Part shown: in pieces, positions 1,305 to 10,463 of the stretch
How positions within the stretch are numbered: the stretch's first letter is position 1
How the letters are laid out: every line of letters begins with the position of its first letter
Assembly: GCF_016918765.2 (NCBI RefSeq)
Contig: NZ_CP092105.1
Coordinates: 79,160 to 111,159 of the forward strand
Direction: 5' to 3'
Source: Flagellatimonas centrodinii
Lineage (GTDB): Bacteria; Pseudomonadota; Gammaproteobacteria; Nevskiales; Nevskiaceae
Length of the DNA: 32,000 bases
The notes under the pieces: generated by a model
The model's database searches: none
The model's input: the letters and a program-made list of their open reading frames with translations, nothing else
Told to the model about the DNA's origin: nothing
Made by a program: the position numbers and the translations under genes

Positions 1305-1994
1305 ATGGACGTACTCGCTGCAATTGCAGTCTCTGCCGTGGTGCTGGGGATTGCCTATCACTACTGGCGCGATCTGGTGATGGCTCGTGCGGCAGGGGTC
1401 TATCCCTATCAGCGAGGCGGCGCCATGTTGTCGGAAGCCGAGGCGCGATTTCTCCAGACCCTGAAGCTCGCAGTGCCGAAGCGACTTCTGGTATGCCCAA
1501 AGGTGCGGATCGCTGATTGCGTGACAGTGCGAAAGGGCTTGAATCGCACAACTGAACGACTCGCACTGACCCGCGCTGCGGTCAAGAACTTCGATTTTGC
1601 CGTTGTCGACGAGGTGACGCGACAGCTGGTGGTGGTCGTCGAGTTGGATGATGAGCCCTTCGTCACCAGGAAAGCCCGGCGGCGGGAGGAGTTCATTGCC
1701 GGGGCATGTGAGGCCGCTTGCATCCCGATCGCGCGCTTTCGTGCTGCTCAAAGCTATGATGCCAACGAGGTGCGCACCGTACTGGTTTCTGCGATCAATG
1801 CTGCCAAGGTTGGGAATGGCGAGGTTCCTGAACCTCAAGGGGCAGTCTGTCCAGAGTGCAATGGAGCCCTTGTACTGTTTGTTGTGCAGGCTGGTGTCTT
1901 GAAGGGGTGTTCAGTGTGGCGCTGCGCTCGGAGGCCCGCATGTAAGGGCTACGTCCTCAATCGAACAGAACCGCCGCATCTGCACGGCGTGTGA
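1305..1994 (+). CDS. Membrane-anchored DUF2726-like (PD-(D/E)xK-type) protein with a C-terminal topoisomerase/primase-type zinc ribbon
   Basis: N-terminal hydrophobic helix (VLAAIAVSAVVLGIAYHYW). Core LSEAEARFLQTL...VCPKVRIADCV...NFDFAVVD...VVVELDD matches my memory of DUF2726. C-terminal CPECNG...CARRPACKG is a four-Cys ribbon. GGAG lies 8 nt upstream of the ATG. Confidence 0.6.
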   Translation: MDVLAAIAVSAVVLGIAYHYWRDLVMARAAGVYPYQRGGAMLSEAEARFLQTLKLAVPKRLLVCPKVRIADCVTVRKGLNRTTERLALTRAAVKNFDFAVVDEVTRQLVVVVELDDEPFVTRKARRREEFIAGACEAACIPIARFRAAQSYDANEVRTVLVSAINAAKVGNGEVPEPQGAVCPECNGALVLFVVQAGVLKGCSVWRCARRPACKGYVLNRTEPPHLHGV

Positions 1995-2070
1995 GGTGCC
2001 GGCGCCGAACTTAGTCAGTTAGCTTCGCCGGCCATATAGTGGATGAATACACTCTGAGTTCACGACCCTG

Positions 2071-2583
2071 ATGCAGATAAACATCGACCCCGCGACTCGC
2101 CACTGTGCTCACATCGTTCAGGCGGCTGAGTACATTGCGAAGGCACATGCTGCGGCCAGCAGCCTGGGCGCCCTCGGGCATCATCCAGGGGTCGGGTCTT
2201 TCGAATTCGAGCAGCGGATGAAGTGGTACCGGATCAAGGGGCCCGTGGACCTCCACCTCCTTGAGCGCGGCGCCCTTCGACTCGGCGAAGCACACGAGTT
2301 GCTAGAGCGATGGATCCGTCAGGCGCGAGGCGGTTCAGGCATGAATGCGCTATCGGTGTTGGCCGAAGCGCGTGGCACGAGTGCTTACGCTGAAGGAATT
2401 CTGCGAAAGGCAACCAACAATGAGTGGATCACGCCGGCGCGCCGGCTGATACGTGTTTCGTATCGAGCGCTCTTCAGGATGAAGTGCGTGATGAGCGGAA
2501 TGCCGGTAGAAGATCCACCCGAAGATGAGGCTCTGGTCACCGTTTGTTCACATCCGGACGATTACACGCGTGACGCTGGTTGA
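2071..2583 (+). CDS. Hypothetical protein (170 aa), no family recognised
   Basis: Longest ORF in this interval, with GC-rich third positions. No clear Shine-Dalgarno, so the start is uncertain. Confidence 0.4.
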   Translation: MQINIDPATRHCAHIVQAAEYIAKAHAAASSLGALGHHPGVGSFEFEQRMKWYRIKGPVDLHLLERGALRLGEAHELLERWIRQARGGSGMNALSVLAEARGTSAYAEGILRKATNNEWITPARRLIRVSYRALFRMKCVMSGMPVEDPPEDEALVTVCSHPDDYTRDAG

Positions 2584-2602
2584 CCGTGTCTGTTGAGGGT
2601 AG

Positions 2603-2636
2603 TTGTCCACAGGTGTTGAACAGAACCTGTGGACAA
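2603..2636. promoter_or_regulatory. Perfect 12-bp inverted repeat (TTGTCCACAGGT / ACCTGTGGACAA) with a 10-nt spacer, between the orphan gene and the patatin gene
   Basis: Read directly: arms at 2603-2614 and 2625-2636. No T-tract follows, so it is more likely an operator or RNA hairpin than an intrinsic terminator. Confidence 0.45.
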
Positions 2637-2774
2637 ATTGCTCGGCAGTTCGGCCTGACGTGCAAGGGGAATCTTTCGTAGAGTGCGCACGTCGGGACCA
2701 CCGCTGGCGAACGCCGCAAGAAACAGTCTCGGAACACCGCTTACGCAGCTCAACTGATCGGGGCATAGGACAAG

Positions 2775-4424
2775 ATGCAGGATGGAAAGGAATCCCTCTA
2801 CCTCATCCTCGAGGGTGGCGGTGCGAAGGGCATAGCCCATATCGGTGCAATCCACGCGATTGAGGCATATCGGACCCACATCAGCCTCAGCGGGATCGCC
2901 GGCACATCGGCAGGATCCATCGTCGCGGCGCTCTCCGTGGCGGGGTACTCTGCGGATGAAATCTTCAGCCTCGATGGCAGCACCCACATCCTCCAGAACC
3001 TCCGGCCGCCGCCAAGGTATGCCTATGAATTGCTTGGGCGTGCGGCATGGGAGCGCCTGCGGGTGATTCGCTGGTGCCAGCGGAAACCGAGGCTCGCGGC
3101 TGCGCTGCTCGGACTGCCTGCGCTCTGGATTCTGGGAGCCCTGCTTCCGCCGGAGGGTCCGTGCGACATTGCCATCCTCGCCGCCATCACCGCAGGGCTC
3201 ATCTGGTTGTTCCGAAACGTGACCGGGCTGACTTCGCTGCGTGAGTTCCGCGGGCACCTCGGCGTACTGCTCGACGCCAAGGCCGCGGGCCATACTGATG
3301 TCACATTCAAGCAGGCTAAGGAAATGGGGTGGCTGCCCCTCAAGGTAATTGCCTCTGATCTTACCCACCGGCGCCTCGCTGTGTTCAGCGCAGAAACCAC
3401 CCCGGATGTCGTGATAGCCGATGCAGTCATGGCCAGCATCGCGATCCCCGTGGTGTTCGAGCCCTGGAACATCATCTACCCCTCATATGACGCGGCTCCC
3501 CAGTGGGTACAGCAGGCAAGAGAGCGGCAAGACTGCCCTCTCCCCGCTACACATGCCGATGGCGGCATGATCGCCAACCTACCTGCTTGGGCGTTCGAAG
3601 CTGAGCGTGCTCTGGACCGTGACAGCACGCTTCTGGCTGTTGAACTCACTGGGGCGCACCAAACAGCGACCACAGTTCCCCTGACAGGCCACGGCCTGCT
3701 GGCCAGCCTCATCCATACCGCCATTTTTGGTGCCGGCGAGATCAGTAAAAGGGTGATAGGCCGCAACCTGGTGGTCACTCTGGAGTCCATCAGGCGGGAC
3801 GGCAAGACCGGCCTCGGTGTTTTGGACTTCGACGCGCCGGTAGAAGACCTGACCTATGTCATGCAGGATGCTCGGAAGATGGTCTCAGCGGTGTTGGTGC
3901 GGAAATTCGGCGAGGAGCTGTCGGCATTTCGTCGTGTGACTCAGACGCTGCACGATGCCCTCAAGGACAAAATGCGGCAAGGCATTCTTGGGATCACGAT
4001 CCACTCTGGCGATGTCGCCACGGTCCGGGTCTCGGTTGTGGGGCTCAATACCGCCACCGACAAGCCCGGGACACGGCCCGAGGGGGTGCAGTGTTCGTTT
4101 GGTGACTACAGCGGCTCGCTCTCACCCGGTAGTGGCTTCGCCCATATCCAACGCTTGGCCACGCTTGTCGCCACAAGCGGGTCCCCTGCGTTGGTTTTCA
4201 GTGGAAAGGTTTATCGACCCAACAACACCTGGCAGGCGGCGCCTAACTTTCTTGTTCAGGATGGTTCCTGGAGCGAACTTTGCTGGGCCTATGCGGTCCC
4301 ATGGGAAGTGGATGATCGATGCTGGGTCATCATGGTGGAGTCGAGTAACCACCTCCTCGAGCCCCAGCGGACGGCTGAGAGGATCCAAGCAGCAATCGAG
4401 GATGAGTTGGAGGGCGACGCTTGA
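2775..4424 (+). CDS. Patatin-like phospholipase with an internal hydrophobic hairpin and an uncharacterised ~250-aa C-terminal region
   Basis: Oxyanion motif GGGAKG (LILEGGGAKGIAHIG), nucleophile elbow GTSAG, and catalytic Asp motif DGG (HADGGMIANLP). Two hydrophobic segments (LAAALLGLPALWILGALL / IAILAAITAGLIWLF) sit between the Ser and Asp motifs. AGGA RBS upstream. Confidence 0.85.
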   Translation: MQDGKESLYLILEGGGAKGIAHIGAIHAIEAYRTHISLSGIAGTSAGSIVAALSVAGYSADEIFSLDGSTHILQNLRPPPRYAYELLGRAAWERLRVIRWCQRKPRLAAALLGLPALWILGALLPPEGPCDIAILAAITAGLIWLFRNVTGLTSLREFRGHLGVLLDAKAAGHTDVTFKQAKEMGWLPLKVIASDLTHRRLAVFSAETTPDVVIADAVMASIAIPVVFEPWNIIYPSYDAAPQWVQQARERQDCPLPATHADGGMIANLPAWAFEAERALDRDSTLLAVELTGAHQTATTVPLTGHGLLASLIHTAIFGAGEISKRVIGRNLVVTLESIRRDGKTGLGVLDFDAPVEDLTYVMQDARKMVSAVLVRKFGEELSAFRRVTQTLHDALKDKMRQGILGITIHSGDVATVRVSVVGLNTATDKPGTRPEGVQCSFGDYSGSLSPGSGFAHIQRLATLVATSGSPALVFSGKVYRPNNTWQAAPNFLVQDGSWSELCWAYAVPWEVDDRCWVIMVESSNHLLEPQRTAERIQAAIEDELEGDA

Positions 4425-4490
4425 CAGGGCCACTCCCCTCCCCATATATGTGCTGAATCAGGCTGTCATTGCAGCCGAACGGAGGCCCCT

Positions 4491-4706
4491 ATGACCACCA
4501 CAACGAAGGACCCGCAGGCGAATCCGTCGGAGGCGGCGGCGAAGCGCATCAAAATTGCCGGTGCTAAGGGTAAGGGCGTAATCAGTTCCAAGAACATGAA
4601 GCCGGTCTACGACACATTCTGGGAGGCAGGAAAGCGCGCACGCGAGCTTGAGGCAGAAGCCACGCGACCTGGCTCTGGAATCCGGGTAGTGCGCCTTGTG
4701 CGCTGA
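4491..4706 (+). CDS. Small basic protein (71 aa), unknown function
   Basis: Strong GGAGG 7 nt upstream of the ATG. K/A/R-rich. Immediately followed by a canonical intrinsic terminator. Lies 66 nt downstream of the patatin stop. Confidence 0.6.
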   Translation: MTTTTKDPQANPSEAAAKRIKIAGAKGKGVISSKNMKPVYDTFWEAGKRARELEAEATRPGSGIRVVRLVR

Positions 4707-4725
4707 TCTGACACTGTAATGAATG

Positions 4726-4754
4726 AAGCGCGCCAAACGGCGCGCTTTTTTATT
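4726..4754 (+). terminator. Rho-independent terminator
   Basis: Perfect 9-bp stem AAGCGCGCC / GGCGCGCTT with an AAAC loop, followed by TTTTATT. Confidence 0.8.
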
Positions 4755-4956
4755 GGGGCTCGGCAGTAAGCTGTTGATGCGGAGATTCTGGCGCTTCGGC
4801 TGCAGCCGGCCTGCCAGCCTTGTCCCGGAGCCGAACAGTGGTCGCGGGGAAGGCAACCTAAAGTGGCGGCGGCTCGGCCGTCACCCCCGACATACCAATC
4901 CCACACCGCCGAAGGCCAGGCTGGGCGGTCGCGGTCGGCGGGGAGTGAAACGGTCT

Positions 4957-5766
4957 ATGGAGGCTGAGCCTGCACCATTCAGCCCCATGAGCACCATCAT
5001 CATTCCCGAAGTCATTGGCGCCCAAAAGCACCCTGCTGTCGCAGAAGTGGCAGAACGGGAGGGCTATGGATCAGATGACGGCCGCCAGCCGCCTGCCGTC
5101 GGGAGGGCCGTCACCCTGGTGAGGTCGGACGTGGGGCTGACAAAGCGATTTGGGGTGTGGGCTCTGTTGGCTGCCGTCCTCGCTAGCCTCGTCAGCGGAT
5201 GGGTGACGTTGGGGCGGCGCCACATTCCTGCTGGCGCCGTGGGTCTGATGCAATTCACCGATCACGCCGAGGTTTATCCGAGCGGGACATTCCTTCTGAC
5301 CCCCTGGAGTCCCGAACCACAGTTACTCGATATCGGATCCCAGGTGTCAACTGTGGAGCTCGGAGGAATGGTCGTGGACCGCGAGGGCTTGCCGGTCCCT
5401 TCGCTGACGATCGAAGTGGTGCACCGGTTCGATCCAGCGTTCGCCCAGAGGTTATTGGCCGCAGGCGCCGCCGGTGGCGAGGCGGTACGAATCCGCGTGA
5501 AGTCGGCAGCGACGGCCGCGATGGTGGAGATACTTTCAGAGTTGACGTCCATCGAGTTGGCGAGGATCGGCTTTCGCCTGTCTCCATTGTTGGATGAGCG
5601 TGTTCGGACACTGATCGAGGCTGCATGGCCATCCGATCTTCGCGACGGGATCATCGTCGAACACGTGAGTTTGACGGAGTTGGCCGTCGACGCTGAAGTG
5701 CAACACGCGCTCATGGAAAGTTCGCGGAAGCAGGCTCTGACCGCATTGCTCGAGGGTGCGCCATGA
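4957..5766 (+). CDS. SPFH/band-7-like membrane protein
   Basis: The ORF-track start at 4723 reads through the terminator. I prefer ATG 4957, which has GGGAG 11 nt upstream. One TM (FGVWALLAAVLASLVSGWVTL) is followed by an HflK/C-like pattern (IPAGAVGLMQF...YPSGTFLLTPW...VVDREGLPVPSLTIEVVHRFDP...IIVEHVSLTELAVDAEVQHAL). Confidence 0.55.
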   Translation: MEAEPAPFSPMSTIIIPEVIGAQKHPAVAEVAEREGYGSDDGRQPPAVGRAVTLVRSDVGLTKRFGVWALLAAVLASLVSGWVTLGRRHIPAGAVGLMQFTDHAEVYPSGTFLLTPWSPEPQLLDIGSQVSTVELGGMVVDREGLPVPSLTIEVVHRFDPAFAQRLLAAGAAGGEAVRIRVKSAATAAMVEILSELTSIELARIGFRLSPLLDERVRTLIEAAWPSDLRDGIIVEHVSLTELAVDAEVQHALMESSRKQALTALLEGAP

Positions 5767-6254
5767 GCAGGTGGTGGGCTGGACTTTCTATCTCACTGCT
5801 GCTGCTGGCATCTGCATGTGGTGGCGACGAGGTGGGCGGCATCACGGTTCCGGAGATCAAGCCGCCGCCATGTGTGGTGTCGGCGGAGACGGGGCGACTG
5901 CACAATCACCCAGCCAGGGTTTGGATCGTTAAAGAGCCTCGTGCCGATGACGACCTGGCGTACATGGTAATGAGGTCGGTGTTCGGATTGGCCCTGAACG
6001 GTCCAGAGCTGCTTGATGCGGTGAGGGTCGACCTGGTGATTGAACCTTGGACTTTCGACCTTCGTGATGGTGTCGAAATCGTGCGCGCGCCGAGCGGCGT
6101 GGGCGTGGATCTCCGGTTCAGAAGCTCCTACGCGCCTGAGATCGTCCGAATGGTGCAAGGTCAGCGGCACGCGGTGCTGAAGGTAGGGATCGGCCCCGAG
6201 GAATCTGCGCTGCGCATGATCGCCAGGCGTGAGCGCAAGGACTGCGAAGCGTGA
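5763..6254 (+). CDS. Putative lipoprotein
   Basis: ATGA start/stop overlap with the upstream gene. Signal peptide with a lipobox-like LLLASAC|GG. Confidence 0.55.
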   Translation: MSRWWAGLSISLLLLASACGGDEVGGITVPEIKPPPCVVSAETGRLHNHPARVWIVKEPRADDDLAYMVMRSVFGLALNGPELLDAVRVDLVIEPWTFDLRDGVEIVRAPSGVGVDLRFRSSYAPEIVRMVQGQRHAVLKVGIGPEESALRMIARRERKDCEA

Positions 6255-8344
6255 ACGCGCTCGACGCCGCCCCGGCAAAGGGGTCGGCGGCGGAAGAGAT
6301 TGCAACAGCGAATGACCGGCCACTCTTGCTGCCATGCGGATTCGACGACCTCACGGTGGCCCCCCTCCGTCGCTTCCGGGCGAGGGACCTGCAGCCATTC
6401 ATCGGACAGGACGTTGTAGTCGAGGCGGCGGTATTCCGGGTAGTACCTGACCGCCGATCGCTGGGGATCTTGGGCGTCCTCATTGGACAAACCGGAGCCG
6501 GCCTCATGATTCTGGGGGGCTACGACTCTGCGCCGGTGCTTCGATATCTACTCTCGCCCAAGCGCGCCGCCTTTTTACTTTATGGCCGGATTCGCAAGGA
6601 AAGCGGCCTGTTGTGCATGCGTGATGTTGAGCCGATTTCGCGTGAATGGTGCGGGCAAATCAGACCTCGATATCCGTTGGATGGTCGGGTGGTTGCGGCG
6701 CAAGTTCGCCGTATTGCCGATATCGAGAAGGACAGCTATCTGGCCGACGCCCGCGCCCAGGCGATTCGACGGGCCAAGGTACGATCCAATCTCGACTCCA
6801 TCGTCCAGTCTGCGGCGGCCACGGTGCTGGAGGAATCATTAAAGCATCCGAAGAGCGTAGAAGCCGCTCTGGGTGTGCTGACGCGGATTGAGGCGCGGAC
6901 GAAGCTCCGGGGCATCCTGCGGGTGCTTCACAAGCCTGACTCGATGACCAGTGCGTTGGCTGCCTTGCACAAGATCCAGGTGGTCGCCGCAGTGTGCATG
7001 CTGCAGGAGGGTGTTGAGGCGAACTTCACCGCGTACCAGAAGCGACGGAGGATCAAACGCGACGCGCCAGCTGTCGCTCTCGAAGTGCTCGCCGGCGGCA
7101 AGGCCGCTGCTCTGGCCCGGCTCTGCATGTACTACCCCTATACGCTGACGGACGAGCAACAAACCGCAATATGGGAATGCCTCAACGAACTCAACGGTGA
7201 GCGTTTCGTGCGCTGGCTCATATCCGGCGATGTGGGGACCGGAAAAACCGACACCTTCGGCGCAATCGCCCGAGCTATGGCTTTGTCGGGGCATCGGGTC
7301 GCGGTGCTGTGCCCCACAGCGAATCTAGTTCGGCAGACCTTCGCGAAGCTAGCAAGCTGGAATCCCGATGTCGGTATGAGCTTCACCGCGGGCCGCGAGG
7401 TTGAGGGCGATCCCGAGACAGCTTTGATCCAGGTGGGGACGCTGGCACTGCGCCGATCGGCGCGACGCTTCGACCTGGTGGTGGTCGACGAGCAGCAGAG
7501 ATTTGCCCGAATGCAGCGCGAAGAGTTGATGTCGTCGGCCGGCCACCTGATTGAAGCTACAGCAACCTGCATTCCCCGCACCCAGGGCCTGGCTGATCTG
7601 GGCGCAATCAAAGTCAGCCGGCTGCGGAAATGCCACGTCGAGAAGGCCATCACCACACGCATCTTCGAGCACAACGAGCGGCGCGCGCTGTTCGCTGGGG
7701 TGCGGGAAAGCGTCGAGGCTGGGCGGAAAGTGCTGGTGTTCTATCCGGCGATTCATGGCAGCGGCGCCGCACACGTGGCCACCTTGATGGAGTACGAGCA
7801 GGCCTGGAGAAAGCTGTTCGGTGATCGCCTCGGCGTTGTACACGGGGCCCTCAAGCCCACGGACGCCCAGGCGGTGATCGACCAACTGCGGTCGAACAAG
7901 GTCGACGTAGTCCTGACCACCACACTGCTGGAAATGGGTCTCGATGTGCCAGATATCCAGCGAGTTGTGGTCGTCCAGGCCCAGCGATTCGGACTGACGA
8001 CGCTCCATCAGATCCGAGGGAGGGTTGCCCGTGCCGGCGGTGAGGGCTATTGCGATCTCTACATGCTCGGTGACTACTCGGCGAAGTCACGGAGGCGGAT
8101 GGAAGTCATGACCCGCACCACGGATGGCTTCGTGATAGCTCGGATGGACGCGCAGCTGCGCGGTACCGGCGACGTCACAGAGCACGGACACCGGCAGAAA
8201 GGATCACTACCTGGCAATCCGTTCGTCAATCTGCCGGTCCCCCCGAAGGCCATGGACGAGGCCGCACGCGCGCTCTACAAGGTTTGGTTCGATCCAGCTG
8301 CAGAGGTGGTGGCCGGGGCGAGCGGCCAACCCGATGGCGGGTAG
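6251..8344 (+). CDS. RecG-like SF2 DNA helicase
   Basis: GTGA overlap with the upstream gene. Walker A GDVGTGKTD, motif II VVVDEQQRF, ATCIPRT (RecG ATPIPRT), TTTLLEMGLDVPD, and FGLTTLHQIRGRVARAG (RecG FGLAQLHQLRGRVGRG). The N-terminal ~170 aa parallels the RecG wedge/OB region. Confidence 0.8.
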   Translation: MNALDAAPAKGSAAEEIATANDRPLLLPCGFDDLTVAPLRRFRARDLQPFIGQDVVVEAAVFRVVPDRRSLGILGVLIGQTGAGLMILGGYDSAPVLRYLLSPKRAAFLLYGRIRKESGLLCMRDVEPISREWCGQIRPRYPLDGRVVAAQVRRIADIEKDSYLADARAQAIRRAKVRSNLDSIVQSAAATVLEESLKHPKSVEAALGVLTRIEARTKLRGILRVLHKPDSMTSALAALHKIQVVAAVCMLQEGVEANFTAYQKRRRIKRDAPAVALEVLAGGKAAALARLCMYYPYTLTDEQQTAIWECLNELNGERFVRWLISGDVGTGKTDTFGAIARAMALSGHRVAVLCPTANLVRQTFAKLASWNPDVGMSFTAGREVEGDPETALIQVGTLALRRSARRFDLVVVDEQQRFARMQREELMSSAGHLIEATATCIPRTQGLADLGAIKVSRLRKCHVEKAITTRIFEHNERRALFAGVRESVEAGRKVLVFYPAIHGSGAAHVATLMEYEQAWRKLFGDRLGVVHGALKPTDAQAVIDQLRSNKVDVVLTTTLLEMGLDVPDIQRVVVVQAQRFGLTTLHQIRGRVARAGGEGYCDLYMLGDYSAKSRRRMEVMTRTTDGFVIARMDAQLRGTGDVTEHGHRQKGSLPGNPFVNLPVPPKAMDEAARALYKVWFDPAAEVVAGASGQPDGG

Positions 8345-9371: not shown

Positions 9372-10298
9372 TCATCCCTCATTTAGAGGCGCGTCGGTGC
9401 CAGAATCGATTGATTTGGAGGCCTGACGTTCCCGGTGTTGATAGAGGTACCTGTAGACGTGCAAGCGCGGCAGGAGCGGCTCGAGCTCGACCTTGCGATC
9501 GCTGCGGCGGCTGGTGGGAACATCGACCAGATCCGATAGCATGTTCAGGCCGGGCCACCGGCCGGCCGGGATGAATAGGGGCAGTGCCCCGGGTATCGGT
9601 GGGAGCGGCTCGCCATCGATCCAAACAAGGAGCTCCACATGGGGAGCCACCGGCTTGCGAATAACCAGCACCTCGGCATCATGCAGTCCTTCCAGGGCCG
9701 CGAGTTCGCGCTCGATCGTTTCGTCGGACAGCGTGCCACGCTGTCGCCGCTCAGCGTTTTGGATTCGCCTGCGGACATCGGCCACCGTCAGCCGTTTGCC
9801 GGTGGTTGCGCCGCGGTTCCAGAAGAAGCTGACACGCTCCGGCGGCTGCTGAAGCATATGGAGCTGGCGGTAGACCTGCAGCCGCTGCACGTGGGCGAAT
9901 GGACGCATTTTGCGAACCTGAGTGAAGGTGTACTCGTCGATCGCCCTCCCCCGCTCGGCGAACACCTTCTTTGCCCGATTGACGTCCTCCAGCGCTTCGA
10001 GCGTCTGCGGTGAGCATGCCAGCAGACCTGGAGCACGTACGCTGGCCACCGGCGCCTGGCCAGGCCGGTAGTTCATGAGGGACAGTGCGGCGGCCGCCCA
10101 GTTTCGAGCGCCCTCGCCTTCTAGGCTGTTCACCGCCATGGTCCGTTGTGCCGCCGGCGAATCACGCTCGGCCAGGACCGCGGCGTATGCCGGAAGGCGA
10201 CCGTCAACCCGACGGACGCAATCGGACAGCTCCGACAAGGCGCCGCGGACCCGGTCATAGGCGTCCAGCAGCCCCACAAAGACTTCAGGCTCAACCAT
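9372..10298 (-). CDS. Tus-like (DNA replication terminus site-binding protein family) candidate
   Basis: Preferred start is ATG 10298 (MVEPEVF...) with AGAGGTGGGT upstream, not 10340. At 308 aa it is the same size as E. coli Tus. Collinear matches to my recollection of Tus, ours listed first: VRAPGLLAC vs VRLPGVLCY; LQVYRQLHML vs LNAYRTLTVL; VSFFWNRG vs LRFGWANKH; VIRKPVAPHVELLVW vs KIKRPVKVQPIARVW; LLPRLHVY vs IIPRLHLY near the C-terminus. Confidence 0.55.
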   Translation of the reverse strand: MVEPEVFVGLLDAYDRVRGALSELSDCVRRVDGRLPAYAAVLAERDSPAAQRTMAVNSLEGEGARNWAAAALSLMNYRPGQAPVASVRAPGLLACSPQTLEALEDVNRAKKVFAERGRAIDEYTFTQVRKMRPFAHVQRLQVYRQLHMLQQPPERVSFFWNRGATTGKRLTVADVRRRIQNAERRQRGTLSDETIERELAALEGLHDAEVLVIRKPVAPHVELLVWIDGEPLPPIPGALPLFIPAGRWPGLNMLSDLVDVPTSRRSDRKVELEPLLPRLHVYRYLYQHRERQASKSIDSGTDAPLNEG

Positions 10299-10308
10299 AC
10301 CCACCTCT

Positions 10309-10327
10309 TTTATAAACCATCCCCCTA
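10309..10327. repeat. Left arm of a perfect 19-bp inverted repeat (TTTATAAACCATCCCCCTA)
   Basis: Exact reverse complement of 10464-10482. Ends 10 nt upstream of the Tus-like start codon and abuts its SD. Confidence 0.9.
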
Positions 10328-10463
10328 GTACACCAGCCACCCCACTCCTGCCACCCCCACCCGCTATCCCCCTGACCCACCGACATTTCTTTTTCTCTTT
10401 TCCCCCTCTTCTTCTCCCCTCTTAAAGCTTGGGCGGCCGGGGCTGGGGCTGGGCGCCCTTGTT

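Follow-up and report, generated by a model that had tools for sequence, protein, structure and literature searches.

The 32,000-nucleotide stretch of Flagellatimonas centrodinii DNA analysed here (the window) carries, between positions 2775 and 4754 of its forward strand, a two-gene unit that encodes a patatin-like phospholipase whose C-terminal domain is GAF-like and, directly behind it, a basic protein of 71 amino acids. The catalytic motifs of the enzyme are intact, a small gene follows most of the related enzymes, and such pairs recur on mobile elements and close to defence genes. We read the unit as a self-contained cassette of effector and regulator, similar to a toxin-antitoxin pair, that is carried by mobile elements and would serve regulated cell killing in defence and/or plasmid addiction; we give this reading a probability of about 0.5. 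The kind of effector is well known, but the architecture of its control appears not to be: in the literature searched, neither a patatin-GAF-like protein accompanied by a small partner nor a patatin with a GAF-like domain as the toxin of a toxin-antitoxin system was found described. The cassette is made up of the following features, given with window coordinates and the basis of each assignment.

2775-4424, plus strand: gene of the 549-amino-acid patatin-like phospholipase with GAF-like C-terminal domain (open reading frame (ORF) list, Pfam, AlphaFold2, Foldseek)
2814-2831, plus strand: oxyanion-hole motif GGGAKG, residues 14-19 (sequence)
2901-2915, plus strand: nucleophile motif GTSAG with Ser45, residues 43-47 (sequence)
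3087-3224, plus strand: predicted hydrophobic helical hairpin with a PPEGP turn, residues 105-150, between the Ser and Asp motifs (Kyte-Doolittle, AlphaFold2)
3558-3566, plus strand: catalytic Asp motif DGG with Asp262, residues 262-264 (sequence)
3840-3977, plus strand: predicted long connecting helix of 46 residues, residues 356-401 (AlphaFold2 models)
4023-4418, plus strand: C-terminal alpha/beta domain with a divergent GAF-like fold, residues 417-548 (AlphaFold2, Foldseek, BFVD)
4481-4485, plus strand: GGAGG ribosome-binding site, 5 nucleotides before the ATG at 4491 (sequence)
4491-4706, plus strand: gene of the 71-amino-acid basic partner protein (ORF list, BLASTP homologue, positional conservation)
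4725-4754, plus strand: intrinsic terminator that closes the two-gene unit, with a 10-bp stem (7 G-C pairs), a 4-nucleotide loop and a T-run (hairpin at 4725-4748)

By hidden Markov model, motifs and predicted fold the 549-residue protein belongs to the patatin-like phospholipases, and it is predicted to hydrolyse lipids. The Pfam Patatin model (PF01734) matches residues 10-273 (E=1.4e-21, 78 bits versus a cut-off of 27.7), and the three motifs GGGAKG, GTSAG and DGG are invariant in a protein alignment. Among 99 full-length representatives of the wider family, G14, G15 and G16 are each kept in 96%, the pattern G[GA]Gx[KRA]G is found by regular expression in 87, and D262, G263 and G264 are conserved in all. 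Since GxSxG and DG[GA] occur together in 95 of the 99, the family consists of active-looking enzymes. Lipase activity in vivo is a prediction. The full-length AlphaFold2 model (mean predicted local distance difference test score (pLDDT) 77, predicted template modelling score 0.76) extends the patatin core to about residue 345. In Foldseek searches the catalytic part matches PlpD, VipD, CapV, CapE and ExoU at E values around 1e-10, and also potato patatin (range 1e-10 to 1e-7); a sequence-profile search puts PlpD, ExoU and VipD nearest among the patatins of solved structure.

The region that separates the nucleophile from the catalytic Asp contains two hydrophobic segments on the Kyte-Doolittle scale, residues 105-126 (2.05) and 128-150 (1.8), for which AlphaFold2 predicts helices at 105-122 and 129-147 (pLDDT 53-74). 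The resulting hairpin may anchor the enzyme in the cytoplasmic membrane, as either a transmembrane or a re-entrant hairpin. A strongly hydrophobic segment 3' of the nucleophile motif is present in only 47 of the 99 full-length representatives, so that the membrane hairpin is optional, and it is the combination of patatin and GAF-like domain that forms the fixed architecture.

The long helix behind the catalytic core leads into the C-terminal alpha/beta domain. A GAF-like fold of this domain is suggested by two independent models, the full-length one and a separate model of residues 357-549 (pLDDT 83). When the C-terminal model was compared with the PDB by Foldseek, nearly all matches were GAF, PAS or LasR-type sensor domains: the GAF domains of Cph2 and other cyanobacterial phytochromes, the DosS GAF domain, fRMsr and the ligand-binding domain of LasR, and furthermore the periplasmic domain of the T4 holin T (solved with the antiholin RI) and the GAF domain of PDE6C (solved with P-gamma). 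The top match in the viral library BFVD is named 'GAF domain-containing protein' (E=6e-4). Pfam gave no match in any of eight C-terminal regions of the family, even at E<=10, and a sequence search of the PDB gave no solved structure for the domain. Because the fold matches are of the sensor type while Pfam and PDB sequence searches remain blank, we call the domain divergent GAF-like and keep it outside the Pfam GAF families. Across the family the conserved positions of the domain are R418, NMxxDADDRL, MTKYExAL, P509 and DSD, of which the clade of the window protein retains R418, P509 and E522-S523.

A preliminary description of this DNA, made from the sequence alone, had proposed an intact catalytic set, two hydrophobic helices between nucleophile and Asp, and about 250 C-terminal residues of no recognisable type that might form a sensor or regulatory domain. 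The motifs and the helices were found as described, although the hairpin, carried by about half of the members, is no hallmark of the family. The C-terminal part is indeed blank in Pfam, so that it is not an already annotated patatin accessory domain, but the extra region is shorter than proposed (about 195 amino acids), as the patatin fold extends past residue 273, up to about residue 345. The sensor idea agrees with the kind of fold that AlphaFold2 and Foldseek returned, be it by weak matches.

The 71-amino-acid protein, annotated at NCBI as hypothetical protein JN531_016940, has an isoelectric point of 10.5, with 15 lysines and arginines versus 7 aspartates and glutamates. Its reading frame has a coding-like G+C content by codon position (0.58/0.54/0.68) and starts 66 nucleotides behind the patatin gene. 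A homologous partner (BLASTP, 44% over 41 amino acids, E=7e-5) is encoded behind a patatin of 48% identity at locus L001. The terminator behind the small gene folds at -29.1 kcal/mol (z=-4.4 versus shuffled sequences). Behind the closest relative of the enzyme (54% identity; locus L003, 1944-1970) an ORF preceded by GGAG (MNIIALSPE...) starts 54 nucleotides past the patatin stop codon; only 9 codons of it precede the contig end, too short to judge homology with the 71-amino-acid protein.

The pairing of the two genes was assessed over loci from genome, metagenome and viral collections, by counting ORFs of 45-125 amino acids that start between -30 and +40 nucleotides from the stop codon of the preceding gene. 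Such an ORF is present behind 38 of the 47 genes that combine patatin and C-terminal domain (81%), versus 19 of 89 patatin genes that lack the domain and, among the other long ORFs of the same loci, 161 of 659 (21-24%); the enrichment is significant in both comparisons (Fisher, p=2e-11 and 1e-14, respectively). In 13 of the 38 pairs the small ORF overlaps the patatin stop codon by 4 nucleotides. The count is conservative, as the window pair with its 66-nucleotide gap and the pair of L010/L163 (89 nucleotides) fall outside the range. A reverse search seeded with eight partners returned the window protein and a handful of others, all encoded directly behind a patatin gene of the family; the three new matches that were examined each overlap the 3' end of a patatin gene of 534-546 codons by 8-11 nucleotides. 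Within subfamilies the partners are alike across taxa: window-L001 (E=7e-5 to 2e-4), L007-L010 (E=1e-8; the same subfamily includes L004 and L006) and L013-L014 (E=2e-7). One group of partners shares the motif W-x(4-8)-[PS]G-[VIL]-Y followed by a charged helix. On an Ensifer and a Rhizobium plasmid (L167, 4520-4750, and L168, 4496-4750) homologous ORFs of about 77-84 amino acids overlap the end of the patatin gene and have VKMLSR...LAKKIRE...VRGR..K.GLFK in common. The gene tables of these two annotated plasmids in PLSDB list no gene at the partner position, and partner genes may thus be missing from those annotations.

These results bear out what had been proposed for the unit as a whole, namely a small basic ORF with a GGAGG ribosome-binding site, a terminator that closes the unit, and a pairing of the two genes. 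A small ORF not conserved with the enzyme would have spoken against the proposal, but the family-wide count and the reverse search both show it to be conserved. It had also been proposed that the unit lacks a cyclase and any other known signalling partner, and neither was found among the window neighbours by Pfam, PADLOC or NCBIfam. The interpretation built on these observations is partly supported: roles in defence or addiction, and as effector and regulator, are suggested by the genomic context.

With a threshold of E<=1e-3 an exhaustive search with the C-terminal profile retrieved 486 cluster representatives, and with E<=1e-10 it retrieved 203, family size being counted in representatives of 50%-identity clusters; a word-index search with the same profile gave just two fragments, so that the exhaustive search was required. 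The GAF-like domain is nearly always located at about residues 340-540 of proteins of 500-620 amino acids, and the patatin domain to which it is joined in nearly all clusters is catalytically intact. Members of the family are rare, have a patchy distribution over the phyla and show no conserved synteny. Close full-length relatives of the window protein are few (54%, 48% and 33% identity), and a megablast search of window positions 2000-5000 against PLSDB gave no near-identical plasmid DNA. Neither an upstream gene nor a third gene is conserved throughout the family, and the cassette therefore appears to be self-contained. At L001 the upstream gene has a weak helix-turn-helix match (HTH_3, E=0.0037, below the Pfam cut-off), to which nothing in the upstream ORF of the window is comparable.

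Several genomic contexts of the relatives point to mobile elements and defence. The cassette of the window is itself located on a plasmid of F. centrodinii (146,558 bp; the patatin protein annotated there is 100% identical), and relatives were found on six PLSDB plasmids, four of which are conjugative. On the Ensifer plasmid pC the gene order is DUF262 (GmrSD-type), patatin, small ORF, HEPN; metagenome contigs have the order GmrSD_N, patatin, small ORF, PIN-TPR-GreABC, adjoining Mu/Tn7-like transposition genes. Further cassettes lie near a MazE/PIN pair and the Wadjet gene JetD (L002) or near SNF2, CoiA-nuclease, AcrVA2-like and methyltransferase genes (L001), and components of MADS, Mza and PD-Lambda-5 are among the neighbours of family loci. 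An 11-kb viral contig (L164) carries the cassette beside the gene for the large terminase, with an endolysin gene also adjoining, and a predicted prophage (L163, identical to L010, Roseicella aquatilis) carries it between the tape-measure and minor-tail genes. The placements in these two are moron-like.

Taken as an effector with its regulator, the cassette could work as follows. A patatin-type phospholipase A would be tethered by the hydrophobic hairpin to the cytoplasmic membrane, on its inner side, with the long helix linking its catalytic domain to a GAF-like regulatory domain. The second gene would be co-transcribed with the first, with translational coupling in many relatives, and its small, mostly basic and fast-evolving product would bind the enzyme and hold the lipase off, with the GAF-like domain as the most probable binding site. 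Such control might resemble that of the PDE6 GAF domain by the small basic P-gamma, or of the T4 holin T domain by the antiholin RI. Loss or displacement of the partner would free the lipase to degrade membrane phospholipid, leading to arrest or death of the cell. Candidate triggers are plasmid loss, the shut-off of host expression in infection, and a ligand or phage product that acts at the GAF-like domain. For the plasmid the outcome would be post-segregational killing and/or defence by abortive infection; next to maintenance genes, the former seems as plausible as the latter. We infer the toxicity of the enzyme, the direction of regulation (the partner could be an inhibitor or an activator), the binding site and the trigger.

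Among described systems, CBASS (cyclic oligonucleotide-based antiphage signalling system) is the best-described bacterial immune system that employs a patatin lipase, which is switched on by a nucleotide signal made by a separate enzyme. The CBASS lipases CapV and CapE share with the window enzyme the catalytic fold and the Ser-Asp dyad and are likewise candidate membrane-degrading effectors on mobile or defence loci. They are single-domain proteins of about 300-360 amino acids, however, and are activated by cyclic dinucleotides bound in the lipase domain itself, whereas the window enzyme adds a predicted hairpin, the long helix, the GAF-like domain and a small partner gene. Membership of CBASS was rejected, since no gene for a CD-NTase (cGAS/DncV-like nucleotidyltransferase) or cyclase is found among the window neighbours and none recurs among 146 neighbouring ORFs of 21 related loci. 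The assignment as a CBASS lipase failed likewise: the NCBIfam model CBASS_lipase scores 17 bits versus a cut-off of 200, and matches to the phospholipase effector models of PADLOC are confined to residues 10-66. In general, the PADLOC and NCBIfam defence models cover solely the N-terminal glycine-rich motif of the enzyme. The "DS2_1 anti-phage phospholipase" of NCBIfam is the CBASS-DAC lipase and is distinct from the present family.

The patatin toxins ExoU, from the type III secretion system of Pseudomonas, and VipD and VpdC of Legionella have about 550-700 amino acids and extra C-terminal domains; ExoU is moreover encoded together with a small cognate protein, the chaperone SpcU. Toxins of the ExoU/VipD type are secreted into eukaryotic cells, where they are activated by host factors (ubiquitin, Rab5). 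The window enzyme differs in its predicted internal hairpin and GAF-like C-terminus, and the family in its lack of linkage to secretion systems. The small partner of the window matches no model in Pfam, PADLOC or NCBIfam; no direct comparison with SpcU was made. VpdC, a Dot/Icm effector, is the best NCBIfam match of the enzyme (NF043045), but with 53 bits versus a cut-off of 1000, and over residues 10-65 only, this assignment was rejected. So was that as a type Vd autotransporter of the PlpD/FplA type, as the POTRA and beta-barrel models (PF07244, PF01103) remain unmatched in Pfam and a GAF-like C-terminus is present instead.

The likeness to PDE6 with P-gamma and to the holin T with RI lies in a GAF-like domain on a hydrolase or membrane-disrupting protein that is regulated by a small protein, which in the case of P-gamma is basic and largely disordered. 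The likeness is confined to the fold (E 3e-3 to 3e-2) and does not extend to the sequence, and binding of the partner to the GAF-like domain is hypothetical. With type II toxin-antitoxin systems of reversed gene order and toxin-based abortive-infection pairs the cassette shares the two-gene operon, in which an enzyme that may be lethal is combined with a small cognate protein of fast evolution, the frequent translational coupling, and the occurrence on plasmids, phages and defence islands. The bicistronic layout of a type II system is seen in the 66-nucleotide gap, the ribosome-binding site and the shared terminator, together with the pairing throughout the family. A difference is that no DNA-binding domain, nor any other domain of Pfam, NCBIfam or PADLOC, was recognised in the window partner.

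Several observations weigh against a regulated killing cassette. In classical type II systems the antitoxin gene usually comes first and its product has a DNA-binding domain, and neither is seen in the window. The matches on which the GAF-like fold is based are weak (E 3e-3 to 5e-2, TM-score 0.40-0.56, probability up to 0.98). At 437-446, 486-493 and 522-524 most of the acidic and polar residues are missing from the window protein and those nearest to it; since the motifs NMxxDADDR, MTKYE and DSD are lost there, the regulation in this clade may differ from that in the remaining family. The subfamilies of partners have no detectable homology to each other, and a hidden Markov model built from the W-x(4-8)-[PS]G-[VIL]-Y group recovered solely its own seeds among 7,536 small ORFs; a single homologous family of partners therefore cannot be claimed, and the pairing rests on position. 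The majority of the partners are basic, but 5 of the 32 non-redundant ones are acidic, so that a "basic inhibitor" is not universal, and the anticorrelation of charge between GAF-like domain and partner is weak and not significant (rho=-0.31, p=0.09). One subclade (L012, L088, L089, L100) lacks the small downstream ORF altogether. Instead, a gene for a P-loop nucleotide-kinase-like protein of about 190 amino acids (AAA_18/AAA_17; 4410-4982 in L012) ends 6-25 nucleotides before the patatin start; its product may be an alternative partner, and may hint at a nucleotide as ligand. At many loci the neighbouring genes are of the housekeeping kind, for example those for GlnA, GatB, SecA and cytidine deaminase. 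Finally, the functional steps beyond architecture, pairing and context are those that we infer.

Some of these points fit with a ligand-gated, membrane-bound enzyme of lipid remodelling that serves housekeeping or stress-related membrane turnover and is tuned by the GAF-like domain as sensor of a small metabolite or nucleotide, with the small protein as accessory subunit or stabiliser and no killing involved. GAF domains classically bind small ligands, the polar and acidic set conserved in most family members (R418, NMxxDADDRL, MTKYExAL, P509, DSD) resembles a ligand or metal site, and both the housekeeping neighbourhoods and the kinase-like partner of one subclade would suit such a role. We nevertheless consider it unlikely, in view of the rare and patchy occurrence of the family over phyla without conserved synteny, its recurrence on conjugative plasmids, phage contigs and transposons beside GmrSD, HEPN, PIN, MADS and Wadjet genes, and the very fast evolution of the partner, which is unusual for a housekeeping subunit.

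A role outside the cell is less probable still. The enzyme could be an effector against hosts or competitors, with the small protein as its chaperone or immunity protein, that is delivered by the type IV secretion system of the plasmid; ExoU-SpcU, VipD and VpdC would be the precedents. The closest solved patatins by profile and the N-terminal match to VpdC, a type IV effector, point in this direction, as do the type IV secretion genes in the window and the fact that effector-immunity pairs typically include a small cognate partner. The match to VpdC falls far below its cut-off, however, the POTRA and beta-barrel domains are absent, and an internal hydrophobic hairpin would impede secretion. 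Moreover, the secretion system in the window is of the conjugation type (RecD2-HHH helicase-like protein, coupling protein, TraC/VirB4), and most family loci, including those on phages, transposons and chromosomes, have no secretion system nearby, which makes delivery of this kind quite improbable. That the patatin acts alone, the small ORF having arisen by chance in G+C-rich DNA or being a gene unrelated to it, is essentially excluded. ORFs of the same size do follow 21-24% of the control genes, the 71-amino-acid protein is not recognised by Pfam, PADLOC or NCBIfam, and the two PLSDB tables list no gene at the position. Against this stand the enrichment to 81% (p ~1e-11), the similarity of the proteins across taxa within subfamilies, the GGAGG site and shared terminator, and the prediction of the ORFs by independent gene callers. 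In addition, every homologue from the small-protein search sits behind a family patatin gene, and homologous unannotated ORFs are present in both PLSDB plasmids.

If the reading as a killing cassette is correct, the same weapon as in CBASS would be under another control logic, a fused sensor-type domain with a tiny partner and no signal-making enzyme. The family might then represent an undescribed, cyclase-independent class of abortive-infection or addiction systems, in which a membrane-anchored lipase is gated by a fused GAF-like sensor and a fast-evolving inhibitor or decoy, in parallel to the mechanism of PDE6 with P-gamma; infection or the loss of the mobile element would lead to membrane destruction with no second messenger. 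This suggestion is a tentative one, which we would put clearly below even odds. The family comprises about 500 clusters with a C-terminal domain for which Pfam has no model and with partner genes that the PLSDB tables of two plasmids lack. At about 2 kb the cassette is compact and directly testable, and should the small protein be the switch, it would offer a simple way to learn how a membrane-destroying enzyme is kept in check by bacteria before its use.

Outside the two-gene unit, the window contains the following features.

41-895: KfrA-like protein (Pfam)
1305-1994: DUF2726 protein with a cysteine-rich tail (CPECNG...C...C), two genes 5' of the cassette (Pfam)
2603-2636, no strand: perfect 12-nucleotide inverted repeat TTGTCCACAGGT / ACCTGTGGACAA with a 10-nucleotide spacer, in the 190-nucleotide region 5' of the patatin gene
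6251-8344: RecG-like helicase of 697 amino acids (Pfam, NCBIfam)
9372-10340, minus strand: protein of the Tus/Ter replication-terminus-binding family (PF05472, E=8e-13), here on a plasmid

The conjugation genes in the window encode a RecD2-HHH helicase-like protein, a coupling-protein-like ATPase, TrbI/VirB10, TraC/VirB4 and an SLT transglycosylase. Together with the protein genes listed above, they indicate that the plasmid is conjugative and that the cassette sits in its accessory or maintenance region. The DUF2726 protein has no match in PADLOC; DUF2726 is presumably related to nuclease domains. The inverted repeat lies just past an upstream ORF of 170 amino acids, about 140 nucleotides 5' of the patatin start, and is not followed by a T-run. 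It may be an operator, an RNA hairpin or the end of the upstream transcript; nothing ties it to the partner protein, and its membership of the module is uncertain. A promoter scan found no sigma-70-like promoter in the 190 nucleotides upstream of the patatin gene, and Rfam no known RNA family in 1900-5300. Downstream of the cassette, at 4957-8344, three ORFs with overlapping stop and start codons encode a membrane protein whose SPFH/Band 7 match is weak and does not reach the cut-off (E=0.018), a protein of 163 amino acids with no assignment, and the 697-amino-acid RecG-like helicase (TIGR00643, E=3e-81, under the equivalog cut-off). An operon with a RecG-like helicase is unusual on a plasmid.

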